Assembly (NCBI GenBank): GCA_000961695.1
Contig: LADW01000003.1
Coordinates: 1,224 to 65,223, forward strand
Reading direction: 5' to 3'
Source: Hyphomonadaceae bacterium BRH_c29
GTDB taxonomy: Bacteria; Pseudomonadota; Alphaproteobacteria; Caulobacterales; Hyphomonadaceae
Length of the DNA: 64,000 bases
The notes beneath the pieces are model-generated. The model did no database searches and was not told the DNA's origin. It saw only the letters and a program-made list of their open reading frames with translations. The position numbers were made by a program, and so were the translations under genes. Of the stretch, positions 20,795-41,511 are shown piece by piece. Position 1 is the first letter of the stretch; every line of letters starts with the position of its first letter.

Positions 20795-20860
20795 GGGAAG
20801 AGCACCTTGTTGAAATGAAACCGATTGTCGCGGGCGCGCATGGTGCGCGGCGCGGCCGTA

Positions 20861-21283
20861 TCAGATCAACAGGCGCTGCTTGAGTGTGAGAGGGGTGACA
20901 GGGGTCTTGGGCGGGCCAGCCGGCGGACCGGTTGTCAGGATGAGGGGGGGAGGCAAATGCCCCGGGTACTGTGCAGCAGTGACGGCAAGAGCCCCTTCCG
21001 GCGCCGGCTGCGGCAGTACAGACATGTCACCGGAAACTTGTCCCTGCATTGCCGGCAGGTTGCAGTCAGGACATCCCGGACAGGCATCTGCGTCTGGCAT
21101 CGACCTATGATCGCTATCCGCGCGAATGGCGCCGTCTGCGTCATCATTGTGGCATGGCGGGGCGTCCATCTCCGCCATTTCGACGACTGGAGCCGCATGC
21201 CCGGTGACACAGCACGCCATGACCGGTTGGGCCACCATAAAGGCGATGGTCATCAGGGTTAGAAGGCGCGAAACCACAAACAT
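20861..21283 (-). CDS. Small exported Cys-rich leader protein (CutF/CruR/DUF2946-like) upstream of cusC
   Basis: Signal-like N-terminus, CPGCPDC, C-terminal TTGPPAGPPKTPVTPLTLKQRLLI. Confidence 0.75.
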   Translation of the reverse strand: MFVVSRLLTLMTIAFMVAQPVMACCVTGHAAPVVEMAEMDAPPCHNDDADGAIRADSDHRSMPDADACPGCPDCNLPAMQGQVSGDMSVLPQPAPEGALAVTAAQYPGHLPPPLILTTGPPAGPPKTPVTPLTLKQRLLI

Positions 21284-27668: not shown

Positions 27669-28022
27669 CTATTTCAATTCAAAAGCCGATTTGCCCGTCA
27701 TCGGATGGCCGTCCTTGGACATCGTGCGCCATTCCAGGGTGTAGTGGCCAGGCGCGAGATCCGGCAAAGGAATGGTGAACGTGTCGGACCTGTCCTTTGG
27801 CGGCGTGAAGCCCGTGTCGACCGTCTTGCCCGCGTCTGTGCGGATCGTGAACGCGACCAGGCCAACGGGCTGGCTGAAGCTGAATGAAAAGTCTGCAGGC
27901 AGCGTATCGATGACAGCGGCGTCTTCGATACTGGTCGTCTTTACACTGACATGGGCAAAGGCCGGGGCGGCGGCGATGGCCAGGGCCAGAACGGTCACGC
28001 TGATGAGTCTGGAGAAGTGCAT
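27669..28022 (-). CDS. copC: CopC periplasmic copper chaperone
   Basis: Mature N-terminal His (AFA|HVS); YTLEWRTMSKDGHPMTG. Confidence 0.88.
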   Translation of the reverse strand: MHFSRLISVTVLALAIAAAPAFAHVSVKTTSIEDAAVIDTLPADFSFSFSQPVGLVAFTIRTDAGKTVDTGFTPPKDRSDTFTIPLPDLAPGHYTLEWRTMSKDGHPMTGKSAFELK

Positions 28023-28060
28023 TTGAAGTCCTTTCAAGAGAGATGTTCAGAGGTTTGGGT

Positions 28061-28858
28061 TCAGAACCAGAGCCGGATGCCGGTAACGAAGGAAAGGGAT
28101 TCTGTGTCGTCGCCCCGGGCGCGAATATAGTCTGCCGTTTCGCCGGCCGATGTTTTCCAGTTGACCCCGACATAGGGCGCGAACTGGCGATCGATCTCAT
28201 AACGCAGGCGAAGGCCGGCTTCGGCCGTCGAAATCCCCGCGCCGGTTTCAAGTTCCGGCACATCCTGAGCCGCGAGGTTCAGTTCCGCGCGAGGCTGCAG
28301 GATGAGGCGCTGCGTCAGACGGAATTCATACTCGGCTTCGAGACGGCCGGACAGGTCGCCTTTCTCACTCAGGAATACGGCACCGTCGACTTCGAACCAG
28401 TAGGGCGCCAGTCCTTGAACGCCCAGGACGGCGTAGGTGCGGGACGGTCCGGGTTTGAAGTCGTGGCGCAGACCCGCCTGGACATCGAAGTACCGGGCAA
28501 TGGGTCGTGACCAGAGTGTCTGGATTTCGGCGTCTTCAAAGCGTCCGGCGTCCAGGTCGTAGTCAATCTCGGACTTGATCCAGAGCCGGTTCTCGTCCGT
28601 TCCCCACCATCCCTGGCCTCCGAGAAACAGGGCAGGCAAGCCTTCATTTGTCTGGTATTCGAACCGGTCGGCCAGAAGGAACAGTGTCGAGCCGCCGCCG
28701 TGCTCCTCCTTCAGGGCATCTTGCGACGCCTTGAATGCGTCCTTGTCCCAATAGGCTTCGGCCTGGGACCCTGGGATCGGCGCGTCTTGCGCCTTGGCGT
28801 ATCCTGCCATCCCCAGCGAAAGCACGAGAAAGGCCGCGAGGTAATGCGTTCTGTTCAT
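28061..28858 (-). CDS. copB: CopB/PcoB outer membrane copper resistance protein
   Basis: GQGWWGTDENRLWIKSE, QGLAPYWFEVD, LRLRYEIDRQFAPYVGV, GIRLWF. Confidence 0.93.
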   Translation of the reverse strand: MNRTHYLAAFLVLSLGMAGYAKAQDAPIPGSQAEAYWDKDAFKASQDALKEEHGGGSTLFLLADRFEYQTNEGLPALFLGGQGWWGTDENRLWIKSEIDYDLDAGRFEDAEIQTLWSRPIARYFDVQAGLRHDFKPGPSRTYAVLGVQGLAPYWFEVDGAVFLSEKGDLSGRLEAEYEFRLTQRLILQPRAELNLAAQDVPELETGAGISTAEAGLRLRYEIDRQFAPYVGVNWKTSAGETADYIRARGDDTESLSFVTGIRLWF

Positions 28859-30708
28859 CTGCGGTGTCCTTCGTGTTGCTTGTCCACCTGGACGTAAGGT
28901 TGGGCGCGTTCTTCCGACGGCTGAGCAGGCGCCGGCGCATCTGCCGTGTGCCCGGTGTCAGCAATGTCTGACGCCCCGCGTGGCAGGACCGAGACGACCT
29001 GCATCATCCCGGCATGCATATGAAAGAGGAGGTGGCAGTGAAACGCCCAGTCGCCGACATGATCTGCCGTTACGTCGAAGGAGAGGCGTTCGGCTGGCTT
29101 GACGATTACGGTATGCTTGCGCGGCTTGTGATCGGTATTGTCGACGACGAGATCGAAAAACATGCCGTGCAAGTGGATCGGGTGGGTCATCATCGTATCG
29201 TTCACAAGGGTGACGCGCAGGCGTTCACCTTCATGGAATATGATCGGGCTTGTGATCTCGCTGAGCTTCACACCGTCGAAGGACCACATATAGCGTTCCA
29301 TGTTGCCGGTGAGGTGGATCTCCATTTCGCGACCCGGCGCGCGCGTGTCGGGGTTGGACACCAGGCTGCGCAACTGAGAATAGCTGAGCGCCCGGTGGGG
29401 GACGGATTCGAGCCCCAGGCCCGGCTCGTCGATCCGGCTGACACGCACCATCGCGACATTGTCGACACCGACGCCCATCCTATGGTCATGGGTCTGGGCA
29501 ACCGGGTCGGATATGGTCATGCTGCCATGGTCCATACCGGCCATACTGCCGTGATCCATTCCGGCCATGGAGCCGTGATCCATCGATGACATGTCCATGC
29601 CCATGTCTCGGTGCGTCAGAACCGGCGGTTCGCGAAGCAGGGGGGCGGTTGCGACGAGACCCGTTTCGGGCGCCAGGGTGGCGACAACCTGACCGGACCG
29701 TTCCATGGATTCCGCGACAAGGGCAAAGGCCCGGGCACGCGTCGGGGTGACGAGCACGTCGTAGGTTTCGGCCACTCCGATCTGGAACTCGTCAGTTTCA
29801 ACGGGCTGGACATGAAGTCCGTCGGCCGCAACTACGGTCATGGGCAGTCCCGGTATGCGGAAATTGAAGATCGTCATGGCCGAGGCATTGATGATCCGCA
29901 AGCGGATGCGTTCGCCGGAGTTGAAGATCGCGGTCCAGTTGTCTTCGGTCGCGTGACCGTTGATGAGGTAGGTATAGGCTGCGGCTGTGACGTCTGAAAT
30001 ATCGGTTGGCGACATACGCATGGCGCCCCAGGAGGCGCGGTCCGACAGCGTCGGGCCGAGACCGTTGTCTCGCGCGTCCCTGACGAAGTCACCCACGGTC
30101 CGCTGCTGGAAATTGTAGACCGCCGCATCTTTCTTCAAACGGGCATATACCTTGTGCGGATGTTCGAAGCTCCAGTCGGACAGGACCAGCACATACTCAC
30201 GGTCTGCCTGGACCGGATCGGCATCCGCAGGATCGATGATCAACGGCGCGTAATGGCCTTGCTGCTCCTGGAGGCCTGAATGGGAATGGTACCAGTAGGT
30301 GCCGCTCTGTGGGACGGCGAATTCATAGGTGAAGCTCGATTTCGGCTTGATGCCGGGGAAGGATATCCCGGGGACTCCGTCCATATGGAAAGGCACCAGA
30401 AGCCCGTGCCAGTGGATGGATGTGTCTTCATCAAGTGTATTATTGACCTTGAGGGTCACCTTCTCGCCTTCGCGGAACCGGATGAGCGGCCCGGGAAGCG
30501 TCCCGTTGAGTGTGATCGCGTGACCCGTGTGTCCCGCGATGTTCACGGCGCTGTGCCCGATGGTGAGATCGAACGCGGTGCCGCGGGATTCGAATATGCC
30601 GGTATTGCCTGCATTGGCGCTGCGGGCCCAGGCAGGCAGGAGCGCTGCAGACGCGGTCATCACGCTGCCGGCGGCAGCGGTCCGCAGAAGATGTCGTCGA
30701 GTGAACAT
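28855..30708 (-). CDS. pcoA: CopA/PcoA-family multicopper oxidase (Tat exported)
   Basis: TRRHLL Tat motif; IHWHG, YWYHSH, HPIHLHG, WAFHCHLLFHMHAGM. Confidence 0.96.
   Translation of the reverse strand: MFTRRHLLRTAAAGSVMTASAALLPAWARSANAGNTGIFESRGTAFDLTIGHSAVNIAGHTGHAITLNGTLPGPLIRFREGEKVTLKVNNTLDEDTSIHWHGLLVPFHMDGVPGISFPGIKPKSSFTYEFAVPQSGTYWYHSHSGLQEQQGHYAPLIIDPADADPVQADREYVLVLSDWSFEHPHKVYARLKKDAAVYNFQQRTVGDFVRDARDNGLGPTLSDRASWGAMRMSPTDISDVTAAAYTYLINGHATEDNWTAIFNSGERIRLRIINASAMTIFNFRIPGLPMTVVAADGLHVQPVETDEFQIGVAETYDVLVTPTRARAFALVAESMERSGQVVATLAPETGLVATAPLLREPPVLTHRDMGMDMSSMDHGSMAGMDHGSMAGMDHGSMTISDPVAQTHDHRMGVGVDNVAMVRVSRIDEPGLGLESVPHRALSYSQLRSLVSNPDTRAPGREMEIHLTGNMERYMWSFDGVKLSEITSPIIFHEGERLRVTLVNDTMMTHPIHLHGMFFDLVVDNTDHKPRKHTVIVKPAERLSFDVTADHVGDWAFHCHLLFHMHAGMMQVVSVLPRGASDIADTGHTADAPAPAQPSEERAQPYVQVDKQHEGHRR
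29518..29604 (-). repeat. Met/His-rich tandem repeat (MDHGSMAG) inside the multicopper oxidase
   Basis: Imperfect 24-bp repeats encoding MGMDMSSMDHGSMAGMDHGSMAGMDHGSM. Confidence 0.85.
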
Positions 30709-30775
30709 GGAGAATGCCTTTTTCAATTGCGCGGACGTCCCTGCGCGGCGGGGGGCCACGCAGGGGGCAACCGCA

Positions 30776-31354
30776 TCAGTGCTGGCTGTGATCGCCCGAG
30801 ATCTTTTCGGTTTCGGACGGTTTTGTCGCCTGGTCCGTCTTCATTCCGGGCATCTGGCTATGGTCCATGCTCTTCATGGCGCTATGGTCCATTTCAGGCA
30901 TTGAGCCATGATCCATGCCGCTCATCTCGCAGGCTTTCCCGCTCTTTGCGGTTATCGCCATGGCGGTTTCGTGCATCTTGCCCATGCAAGCTTCGTACAG
31001 GCCTTCTGATGCATCGAGTGCGCAGATGGCCTCAATCCGGTAGGAGGCCGACTTTGTATCTTCGACGAACAGGATGTGGACGCGGTCGCCTTCAGCAAAA
31101 GCCGAAAGGTCGATACCCTTCGCCACCTTGAAGTCCATTGCCATCGCATCCCAGCCGAGCGCGGCGATGGGGCCATGATTCAGTGTGACTTTCGACGCTT
31201 TGACGTCGAGGCCGGCGACTTTGCCTTCGCCCATTGGCAGGCCGCAAGCTCCGGAATGGTCCATTTCTGCGGCCATGTTGTTGGATTCAAGCGCCAAGGC
31301 AGGCGCGGCTGAAAACCCGAAGGCTGCCGCGATGATCAGATGTGAGAGTTTCAT
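30776..31354 (-). CDS. Second CusF-like copper-binding protein with Met/His-rich tail
   Basis: TLNHGPIAALGWDAMAMDF; tail MSGMDHGSMPEMDHSAMKSMDHSQMPGM. Confidence 0.82.
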   Translation of the reverse strand: MKLSHLIIAAAFGFSAAPALALESNNMAAEMDHSGACGLPMGEGKVAGLDVKASKVTLNHGPIAALGWDAMAMDFKVAKGIDLSAFAEGDRVHILFVEDTKSASYRIEAICALDASEGLYEACMGKMHETAMAITAKSGKACEMSGMDHGSMPEMDHSAMKSMDHSQMPGMKTDQATKPSETEKISGDHSQH

Positions 31355-31371
31355 GGGAAGAATGTCCTATG

Positions 31372-31475
31372 GAATTGATCGATGAGGAAGCGGGCGGTTA
31401 TTGCGCGCACCTCCGATTGATGAAATTGGCGGCGCTGCCCGTGAGGCGTGCGCACAGGTCATCAGGGATCAATTC
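31372..31475 (-). promoter_or_regulatory. Predicted RNA stem-loop linking the leader ORF stop codon to the downstream SD region
   Basis: Perfect 9-bp inverted repeat GAATTGATC (31372-31380)/GATCAATTC (31467-31475, covering the TGA); inner 11/12-bp stem TGCGCACGCCTC/GAGGTGCGCGCA. Confidence 0.6.
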
Positions 31476-31891
31476 TGCAGGCGGATCTTCAGTGTCACGA
31501 GGGACGGCCGGGACCGGGGAGGACCTCTGGCTGGTTCGATTCTCTGGTCGGCGAGTCTGAAAAGATTGGCAGGTGTCGTCTCCGGCCTCGATGGCAGGAT
31601 GGCGATAGCGGCCGGCGAAGGGGGGCCAGCCATGGCCAGAGCCTCGGCCGGAAGTGCATTGACTGCGCAAGGGGGGCAATCATGGCGCTGATCTTCGCAA
31701 CCTTGATCACCGTGCGCGTCTTGCGTGGCGTCCGGCTGTACAGCGTGATCGGTGTGGCCGACTGTCACCGACAGTACAGCATCTCGCCCCGTCTGCGCAC
31801 CCGCGACGGCCGCGCAGGCGCACGCAGCATGTCCGGCGCCCAGTGCAAGCAGGGCGAGAGCGACAATGGTGCGGCGAAGGGAGTCCAGCAT
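31469..31891 (-). CDS. Small exported Cys/His-rich leader protein (CutF/CruR-like) upstream of the cusF2-cop operon
   Basis: Signal-like ALALLALGAGHAACAC, HDCPPC, C-terminal PARGPPRSRPSLVTLKIRLQN. Confidence 0.75.
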   Translation of the reverse strand: MLDSLRRTIVALALLALGAGHAACACAAVAGAQTGRDAVLSVTVGHTDHAVQPDATQDAHGDQGCEDQRHDCPPCAVNALPAEALAMAGPPSPAAIAILPSRPETTPANLFRLADQRIEPARGPPRSRPSLVTLKIRLQN

Positions 31892-31924
31892 GGAGCGTTG
31901 ACCAACCAATCTCGAGTCGCTATT

Positions 31925-31943
31925 TATACCCTATGGAGGTATA
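31925..31943. promoter_or_regulatory. CsoR operator between the divergent csoR and leader-cop operon
   Basis: Palindrome TATACC-CTATGGA-GGTATA next to TGTCAA (minus-strand TTGACA) and 6 bp from the csoR ATG. Confidence 0.75.
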
Positions 31944-31949
31944 TGTCAA

Positions 31950-32225
31950 ATGCATCAATCCCAACCTAAATCGGTTGTAACGCGGCTCAAAAGAATAGAA
32001 GGCCAGGTGCGGGGCGTTGCCGGCATGGTCGAGGGAGGCCGGTACTGCATGGATATCCTCACCCAGGTCCAGGCCATCAAGGCCGCGCTCGGCAAGGTTG
32101 AAGATGAACTCCTGAAAAACCATGCCGCGCACTGCGTGGAAGAAGCGATCCGCGACGGTGATGCCGAAAGCCAGAGGCAGAAATTTTCCGAACTCGTGGA
32201 CCTCTTCGGGAAGTACAGGAGCTGA
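31950..32225 (+). CDS. csoR: CsoR copper-sensing repressor
   Basis: RLKRIEGQVRGV...RYCMDIL...NHAAHCV; Cys-His-Cys fingerprint of CsoR. Confidence 0.92.
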   Translation: MHQSQPKSVVTRLKRIEGQVRGVAGMVEGGRYCMDILTQVQAIKAALGKVEDELLKNHAAHCVEEAIRDGDAESQRQKFSELVDLFGKYRS

Positions 32226-41166: not shown

Positions 41167-41511
41167 TCAGGCCCGGGGGGGACGCAGGAGTTCGTAGGGC
41201 GGAGCGTTCAGCAACGCGTTGTCAGGCACGAGAAAATAGCGGGCAGCGACCTTGGGCAATCCGAGCGGCTGCAACTCATCGGTCCGCCAGACATATTGAT
41301 GGCAAGTTCCGCAATGATGCACTGCGTGCTCGTGCCCGCCCGAACGGTCCCTGTCTGCCGGGGCGGCAGCATCCGTACCGTGATCCGCGTAGCAAATCTC
41401 AGGAGTTTCTGCAGCGTGAGCGTTTTCCGCCAATGGCGACGCCACAAAGGCCAGCGCGACGAGCGCGGCCAATAACATCCGGATCCAGAAAGGAGCAGAA
41501 CTGGGCATCAT
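41167..41511 (-). CDS. Small exported His/Cys leader protein (DUF2946/CzcI-like) upstream of czcC
   Basis: Signal peptide, HEHAVHHCGTCH, C-terminal PPYELLRPPRA. Confidence 0.78.
   Translation of the reverse strand: MMPSSAPFWIRMLLAALVALAFVASPLAENAHAAETPEICYADHGTDAAAPADRDRSGGHEHAVHHCGTCHQYVWRTDELQPLGLPKVAARYFLVPDNALLNAPPYELLRPPRA

Follow-up and report, generated by a model that had tools for sequence, protein, structure and literature searches.

The last codons of a conserved leader gene are predicted to mask the ribosome-binding site of a cusF-like gene in a Hyphomonadaceae copper-resistance operon

The window analyzed here is a 64,000-nucleotide stretch of DNA from Hyphomonadaceae bacterium BRH_c29 (contig LADW01000003.1), and all positions are numbered within it. 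On its minus strand, a 140-residue leader open reading frame (ORF) heads a copper-resistance operon, the next gene of which encodes a CusF-like periplasmic copper-binding protein. Our computations show that the last ~10 codons of the leader, together with its stop codon, form the predicted 5′ arm of a long-range RNA helix, P1, whose 3′ arm contains the Shine–Dalgarno (SD) sequence and the AUG of the cusF-like gene. The same modeling shows that the ribosome-binding site (RBS) of this gene would be unmasked when a ribosome stands at the leader's end, and not when one is stalled at an RGPP motif located farther upstream. The leader, its motifs and the predicted RNA elements are the following.

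31469..31891, minus strand: leader ORF, 140 aa plus UGA stop (31471-31469); coding part 31891-31472
31793..31891, minus strand: N-terminal membrane helix or export signal (residues 1-33), with the conserved GHAACAC at its end
31667..31678, minus strand: C72-P-P-C75, putative Cu-binding CxxC
31517..31528, minus strand: R122-G-P-P125, candidate ribosome-arrest core
31472..31516, minus strand: 15-codon tail RSRPSLVTLKIRLQN; family consensus xxxTPV[ST]LKxRLxx-stop
31467..31500, minus strand: P1 5′ arm (codons 131-140, stop and 2 nt more), with the anti-SD CCUG at 31481-31478; from the minimum free energy (MFE) fold and RNAalifold
31418..31464, minus strand: hairpin P2, in the spacer; MFE fold and RNAalifold
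31386..31414, minus strand: hairpin P3, in the spacer; MFE fold and RNAalifold
31351..31380, minus strand: P1 3′ arm (GAUCAAUUC, SD AGGA, UCUUC and the cusF AUG); MFE fold and cognate duplex
30776..31354, minus strand: gene for the CusF-like periplasmic copper-binding protein, 192 aa (PF11604, E 1.8e-20), with a predicted masked RBS

Within P1, GAAUUGAUC (31475-31467; all helix coordinates are on the minus strand, which is the mRNA strand) is perfectly complementary to GAUCAAUUC (31380-31372). The former is made up of the G of the Q139 codon CAG, the N140 codon AAU, the UGA stop and the UC that follows it; the latter is followed by CAU, the AGGA SD (31368-31365), 10 nt and the cusF AUG (31354-31352). 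A preliminary description of this DNA had reported the perfect complementarity of the stop-containing segment and had placed its partner 3 nt before the AGGA; both statements are confirmed, but the helix is larger than described. In the MFE fold of 31500-31340 (161 nt), P1 consists of the 9-bp helix and three more sub-helices. CCUG (codons R137/L138) pairs with UAGG and covers the SD, GAAGA (31490-31486, codons 134-136) pairs with UCUUC, and UCGUG (31500-31496, codons 131-132) pairs with CAUGA, covering the cusF start codon. This fold has a ΔG of -51.4 kcal/mol (z = -3.67) and is matched by 0/200 shuffled sequences. Only 0.1-0.3% of controls would be expected to have a perfect match of 9 bp or longer that joins the stop region to the 35 nt preceding the start. 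P1 spans 115 nt and encloses both P2 and P3. The "inner 11/12-bp stem" of the preliminary description corresponds to P3, in which 7+3 pairs flank one mismatch and two G-U pairs; P2 is enclosed too. The AUCAAU of P2, considered as an alternative partner of the P1 5′ arm, was rejected as it is not conserved.

The RNAalifold consensus of 19 distinct close loci contains the CCUG:CAGG pairing at the SD, the UGAUC:GAUCA pairing at the stop codon and both inner hairpins. The covariation among these loci comes mainly from P3, in which 5 double-sided changes fall on the pair at columns 106/123; the P2 pairs are retained, with one-sided changes. Beyond the close loci, one locus (L020) sequesters its SD with other letters, using CCUC:GGAG plus UUGAAUGCAG:CUGCAUUCAA, and two loci at 28-31% identity (L031 and L032) do so with CCUGAAG:CUUCAGG. 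The window itself contains a paralogue, leader 1 (140 aa, 20861-21283), upstream of cusC, in which CAGCGCCUGUUGA pairs with UCAACAAGGUGC, the cusC SD. The last codons and UGA of leader 1, whose tail is GPPKTPVTPLTLKQRLLI, enter a helix with that SD (20795-21283, minus strand; fold z = -3.23), and a GC hairpin near leader 1 is, under this fold, the inner hairpin of the cusC-SD helix and not a terminator. The third copy in this genome (locus L038, G000 contig C23:121352-121747; tail GPPRQTPRQLKTRFLN) is located outside the window, 78 nt upstream of a multicopper oxidase gene with a Tat (twin-arginine translocation) signal, and here too the SD is predicted to be paired with the tail (P = 0.91).

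The pairing also depends on the codons used. With the tail taken to run from the twelfth-last codon to 9 nt past the stop, the probability that the SD pairs with it, P(SD:tail), was at least 0.5 in 35/42 distinct loci. Synonymous recoding of the last 12 codons lowered this probability from the native 0.66 to 0.40 (Wilcoxon p = 4e-5). For the leader in the window, it fell from 0.75 to 0.28, and the native value was reached by 0/60 recodings. Duplexes between tails and their cognate RBSs had a mean energy of -16.9 kcal/mol, compared with -11.8 kcal/mol for non-cognate pairs (permutation p < 5e-5), and the cognate duplex of the window (-24.5 kcal/mol) was the best of 24, its mean with non-cognate RBSs being -13.4 kcal/mol. 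These comparisons indicate that the helix is under selection: native codon choice favors the pairing, and the design recurs in distant relatives and in a paralogue.

These data also bear on whether the main output of the locus could instead be attenuation of transcription within the spacer, whether through Rho, as in the Bordetella pertussis leader CruR (PMC9426467), or at an intrinsic terminator. Apart from the CruR precedent, this would be in line with the C-rich spacer and with the GC hairpin followed by a U-run in some relatives (L009 and L031). However, no terminator-like site is present in the spacer of the window, the spacer is a poor Rho substrate because it is highly structured, and it is the tail:RBS pairing that is conserved and co-evolving. 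We therefore regard attenuation as highly improbable.

In the model, opening of the RBS depends on where a ribosome sits on the leader. RBS opening energies were computed over -18 to +12, for the window and as the mean of 16 loci. The cost of opening was 11.7 kcal/mol for the free mRNA of the window (family mean 13.2), 11.5 kcal/mol (13.8) with a ribosome at the PP codons, and 5.0 kcal/mol (7.4) with a ribosome at the stop codon; the difference between free mRNA and a ribosome at the stop was significant (p = 3e-4). This measure took the place of the equilibrium P(SD unpaired), which, when the stop-codon footprint was masked, went up in 9/14 loci. The energies agree with the geometry. With P124 or P125 in the P site, the standard footprint ends near 31507-31503, which is 3-7 nt short of the weakest basal P1 pairs and at least 22 nt short of the anti-SD; measured from the footprint end, the stretch with the anti-SD and the 9-bp arm is 22-40 nt farther 3′.

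The preliminary description had proposed, by analogy with CutF, that the ribosome unfolds the stem by stalling at RGPP. In its literal form this mechanism has copper induce the RGPP stall and the stalled ribosome melt the SD-occluding stem, and it can draw on a family resemblance that extends from the export signal, CxxC and PP to the occluded SD and the copper-resistance operon, and on the CutF precedent itself (PMC9973294; bioRxiv 10.1101/2025.02.05.636593). Here, however, the footprint is too short and the opening energy is essentially unchanged by a ribosome at PP, dropping only when the ribosome is at the stop. The PPP of CutF, by comparison, is only 2 codons from the stop (PMC8456105). 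Because a ribosome at the PP site leaves the RBS masked and one at the stop site unmasks it, the literal CutF mechanism is very unlikely.

The leader protein itself has 28 homologues at 38-60% identity, nearly all of 140 aa (the three others have 128, 138 and 157 aa), in which the invariant residues include C72, C75, P125, S130, L134, K135, L138 and Q139 (alignment A1). P124 is nearly invariant in A1, and in alignment A3, C72 is invariant and C75 nearly so. The N terminus is hydrophobic and conserved in both alignments, and AlphaFold2 predicts a helix at residues 2-33 with a predicted local distance difference test score (pLDDT) of 85-91. The only other predicted helix is a short one in the tail, at 131-139, and the remainder is of low confidence; with disorder predicted apart from the N-terminal helix, a nascent-chain or leader role fits better than that of a folded protein. 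In the window's leader, 46 residues intervene between CxxC and RGPP. Across the family the second Cys and the first Pro are 48-53 residues apart, compared with 47 by the same count in CruR.

The Pfam family DUF2946 (PF11162) aligns with the leader over its full length (profile positions 3-117 of 117), ending exactly at P125, but at a score below the gathering threshold (19.6 bits vs 23.7; E 0.0017), and the leader's relatives score 14-21 bits. Among NCBIfam models, including CopL, none matched leader 2, the leader studied here, above threshold. A profile search of 1.8 billion representative proteins yielded ~40 clusters (50% identity), almost all with lengths of 127-191 aa, that have a common architecture: an N-terminal helix, a CAC motif, a His-rich stretch, a CxHC motif, a spacer of ~50 residues and W/R-x-x-P-P, then x3-T-P-V-S/T-L-K-x-R-L-x-x followed directly by the stop. 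The family is present in 59/201 genomes of the window's order and in only 3/401 sampled genomes across the class, the window's own among them. That genome has three copies: leader 2, leader 1 and the one on another contig. The genes next to family leaders are cusF, Tat-type multicopper oxidase genes and cusC. The window also contains leader 3 (41167-41511, minus strand, 114 aa), which ends in LLRPPRA and scores 25.5 bits against DUF2946, above threshold. As it is a bona fide short-tail member, the window holds both the classic and the long-tail architectures.

Collectively, the sequence comparisons support the notion that the 140-aa ORF encodes a regulatory leader akin to CutF, CruR and CopL (DUF2946-like), that is, a real, conserved, exported CxxC/RGPP protein. 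In keeping with leaders of the DUF2946 and CutF-like type, it heads a same-strand metal-homeostasis operon with a short spacer. The preliminary description had called the architecture CutF-like, which holds for the export signal, CxxC, RGPP and SD-occluding helix, but has to be qualified by the sub-threshold DUF2946 score and by the extra conserved tail. Its placement of ARGPPR about 14 codons before the stop was accurate (residues 121-126, with 14 codons after R126).

In this leader, the proline motif is not at the very C terminus: 15 residues follow PP in the window's leader and 13 or 15 in the family, as compared with 2-3 in CutF and CruR. The tail is conserved across the ~40 clusters and the 59 genomes of the order, more so than PP, and its K-x-R-L-x-x-stop register is fixed in all members, whereas the last two residues and the identity of the stop codon (UGA, UAG or UAA) vary. 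The codons also vary: AGC or UCN for Ser, CGN or AGA for Arg, and CUN or UUR for Leu. As different codon families encode the same residues, selection acts on the tail peptide, which is not a by-product of RNA pairing. In five members (L054, L057, P0047, P0053 and L012), PP is replaced (WRDQRAQ, WRTPS, AAAPS or GHP) and the TPVSLKIRLLx tail is intact. Slowing by rare codons in the tail was considered and dropped, the G+C content at third codon positions being 0.62 both in the tail and in the rest of the leader.

Such conservation raises the question of whether the arrest is brought about by the tail peptide itself, when PP is already farther along the exit tunnel, so that ribosomes would pause at the last codons or the stop, on the P1 5′ arm. 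Copper on the periplasmic Cys motifs would then remove a releasing pulling force, a logic like that of CutF, and the parked ribosome would hold the cusF RBS open. The tail outranks PP in conservation and is kept by PP-less members, its register is fixed throughout the family, the peptide is under selection despite synonymous and codon-family changes, and residues 131-139 are predicted to be helical. In addition, the stop codon lies at the center of the P1 5′ arm, and it is from this position alone that a ribosome unmasks the RBS in the modeling. Terminal arrest accounts for the tail conservation and fixed register better than does a gate at RGPP, the reading developed below. However, no known arrest peptide resembles TPVSLKxRL, a literature search for the tail motif strings returned no relevant paper, the last two residues and the stop codon vary, and the conserved CxxC-to-PP spacing and exact RGPP core indicate PP as the arrest site. 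On balance, we consider terminal arrest unlikely, though it is the main rival of the gate.

Downstream, the cusF-like gene is separated from the leader stop by a 114-nt spacer, and its 192-aa product has a C terminus rich in Met and His. The remaining genes of the operon and the elements upstream of the leader are as follows.

27669..30759, minus strand: rest of the operon after cusF, from Pfam Cu-oxidase_3/2/1, CopB and CopC domains and the ORF list
28855-30759, minus strand: ORF for a CopA/PcoA-type multicopper oxidase, the second gene after the leader
28061-28858, minus strand: copB
27669-28037, minus strand: copC
31921..31949, minus strand: probable promoter of the leader operon, read from the sequence
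31950..32225, plus strand: divergent gene for a CsoR-type metal-sensing repressor, 91 aa (PF02583, E 1.5e-28)

The locus had been described as a cop/multicopper oxidase operon, and the leader does head a copper-resistance operon; the next gene, however, is the CusF-like gene, with the oxidase second. As listed, the oxidase ORF has a GTG start located 17 codons upstream of a Tat-type MFTRRHLL motif (window 30708-30759). Its true start is probably Met18 (30708), ~67 nt past the cusF stop, as judged from the sequence.

The probable promoter consists of TTGACA (31949-31944), a 17-nt spacer and TAAATA (31926-31921). A CsoR-type inverted repeat, ATACC-N7-GGTAT (31942-31926), fills the -35/-10 spacer, and the cassette TTGACA-TA-TACCynnnnrGGGTA-TAGATA lies upstream of most family leaders. 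The ATG of csoR (31950, plus strand) abuts the -35 hexamer of this divergent promoter. A consensus scan of 31250-32050 for sigma-70 promoters and intrinsic terminators found no match; the probable promoter escaped it, as -10 hexamers ending in A were excluded. The leader gene itself has no evident SD. A 5′-untranslated region (5′-UTR) motif, UGGUCAA(C/G)G(C), is found at 31900-31912 (minus strand), ~13 nt before the leader start codon, and is kept in nearly all family members, distant ones included (loci L001-L059); it may act as an initiation element of the non-SD type or as a binding site. Its GGUCAA was considered as a competitor for UUGAUC, but such pairing is unlikely, since members with a different stop region have kept the motif as well. 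An Rfam search (E <= 1) gave one chance small RNA match only, on the opposite strand. In public sequencing runs, the locus is present in many groundwater and subsurface DNA metagenomes, and the single RNA-type run contributed five short, low-depth contigs only, from a ~97% relative.

The conserved CsoR operator makes it conceivable that the leader senses nothing, with all copper control coming from CsoR and P1 merely tying cusF to leader translation; the released protein would then be a periplasmic or membrane copper-binding or CopL-like factor. Such plain translational coupling follows directly from a helix that an upstream ribosome must open, and the Cys- and His-rich regions could bind metal. 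Against it stand the lack of a predicted fold outside the N-terminal helix, the conservation of a CxxC-to-PP spacing typical of nascent-chain sensors, the presence of an RGPP core otherwise avoided by proteomes (PMC12992588), and the finding that CutF-type products are undetectable in cells (PMC9973294). We consider coupling without sensing improbable.

The account that we favor, tentatively and by inference, is that release of an arrest at RGPP lets ribosomes reach P1 and unmask cusF. With the RBS inside P1, cusF could be initiated only as long as a ribosome is present on the last part of the leader ORF, and copA-copB-copC are probably under the same control through coupling or polarity. RGPP, 15 codons upstream of the stop, would be the gate. 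In the OFF state, a ribosome arrested at RGPP would sit just 5′ of P1, which would stay closed, and following ribosomes would be blocked. Periplasmic copper would bind the emerging Cys motifs and relieve the arrest, as reported for CruR. In the ON state, ribosomes would traverse the tail and terminate inside P1, each passage unmasking the RBS. The fixed-register, peptide-conserved tail suggests an extra nascent-chain effect at termination that would prolong the unmasked state. The sign follows from the arrangement: if arrest at RGPP means OFF and the resistance operon is inducible, copper must relieve the arrest rather than induce it. Transcription would be under separate control by the divergent CsoR, acting through the operator in the promoter, so that the two layers would integrate cytoplasmic and periplasmic copper. 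A hybrid, in which the RGPP gate is combined with terminal arrest, is possible.

Several points weigh against the RGPP gate. The geometry assumes ribosome footprint limits of -12 to +15 nt, and at equilibrium the pairing of the SD in the window is barely changed by masking of the stop region, the SD re-pairing in a weak local hairpin. Classical covariation for P1 is thin because P1 is almost invariant within the close family, and loci with spacers of more than 160 nt gave no cognate tail:RBS signal; in these, either the downstream start is mis-assigned or another mechanism is used. R[AG]PP is kept in 33/92 distinct family C-termini and PP is missing from 7/92, and the gate explains neither the PP-less C-termini and scarcity of R[AG]PP nor the greater conservation of the tail over PP. 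Finally, in CutF copper promotes arrest, the opposite of what the gate needs. The long-spacer members without cognate pairing (164-230 nt) are L042, L044-L048, L050, L053, L054, L058 and L059.

Nascent-chain metal sensors such as CutF and CruR are a recent discovery, and copper promotes arrest in the former but relieves it in the latter. The clade described here, present in ~30% of its order's genomes, has its arrest core set apart from the RNA switch by a fixed tail. It thus offers a test bed for whether the sign of the output is set by where the arrest site lies with respect to the masking helix, for whether there is a second, termination-stage peptide effect, and for how one mobile copper-resistance operon brings together CsoR, which responds to cytoplasmic copper, and a periplasmic sensor. 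Part of the family is missed by Pfam DUF2946, by NCBIfam CopL and by the published filter for CutF-like proteins, which takes PP within the last 15 residues.

CutF (118 aa, Rhodobacter capsulatus, cutFOG) has a CxxxC motif and a PPP located 2 residues from its C terminus (PMC8456105). CutF-like leaders are found in thousands of genomes, with CusF among their common downstream neighbors (PMC9973294). CutF resembles the leader described here in several ways: the protein is small, is exported through Sec and carries a Cys motif in its middle and a proline motif toward its C terminus; its gene opens a copper-detoxification operon and works in cis; and the SD of the gene after it is shielded by RNA structure (PMC8456105, PMC9973294, bioRxiv 10.1101/2025.02.05.636593). 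CutF differs in having CxxxC in place of CxxC, and here a conserved 15-residue tail follows RGPP. Moreover, the CutF stem-loop is local to the spacer, so that the stalled ribosome reaches it, whereas here the anti-SD lies inside the last codons and the helix spans 115 nt, out of the reach of a PP-stalled ribosome.

CruR (Bp2923, a B. pertussis DUF2946 protein) carries RAPP 3 residues from its C terminus and 45 residues from its CxxC (PMC9426467), and shares with the window's leader the export signal, CxxC, R-x-P-P and a nearly identical spacing (46 here vs 45 intervening residues). It too is a cis-acting upstream ORF, and copper relieves its RAPP arrest, which is the sign that a gate at RGPP needs (PMC9426467). 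In contrast, it acts on transcription through Rho-dependent termination, by which a TonB receptor for copper uptake is switched off (PMC9426467), it has no conserved tail and no reported SD-masking helix, and the window's leader falls below the Pfam threshold. Among the RAPP/RGPP arrest peptides (ApdA, ApdP, ApcA and SecM variants), the exact RGPP core and the small secretory protein upstream of a regulated gene are also found. RGPP is reported to be the most robust core, refractory to elongation factor P, and copper-related downstream genes to be enriched (PMC12992588). In those peptides, however, the motif is near the C terminus, whereas 15 conserved residues follow it here, and ~60% of the present family have other xxPP motifs or none.

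CopL (NCBIfam NF033807; Xanthomonas/Stenotrophomonas copL-copAB) is likewise a small Cys/His-rich gene, needed in cis for copper-induced expression of the downstream multicopper oxidase, and many members of the present family lie directly upstream of a Tat-type multicopper oxidase gene. Nevertheless, the CopL model does not match leader 2, and leader 1 scores 17.6 bits vs a cut-off of 40. A parallel at the RNA level is the "Min Jou" interaction between the coat and replicase cistrons of RNA phage MS2, in which the downstream RBS is held in a pairing with codons of the cistron before it and initiation needs ribosomes translating that stretch, although the biological context is different and no nascent-chain sensor is involved.

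Thus, the leader kind itself, CutF-like, is already known. What is new is a clade lying below curated thresholds, a conserved tail of 13-15 residues, and an anti-SD placed in the last codons of a helix that spans 115 nt; given the tail length and the position of the anti-SD, arrest at PP must, by geometry, mean OFF. It is possible, although we hold this with some doubt, that T-P-V-S-L-K-x-R-L-x-x-stop is an undescribed module, either a termination-stage arrest peptide that parks the ribosome on its own anti-SD or a "sign-inverting" extension. In the latter case, moving the stop 13-15 codons past R-x-P-P, into an RBS-masking helix, would convert a copper-relieved arrest, which in CruR logic is OFF with copper, into a copper-induced resistance switch.

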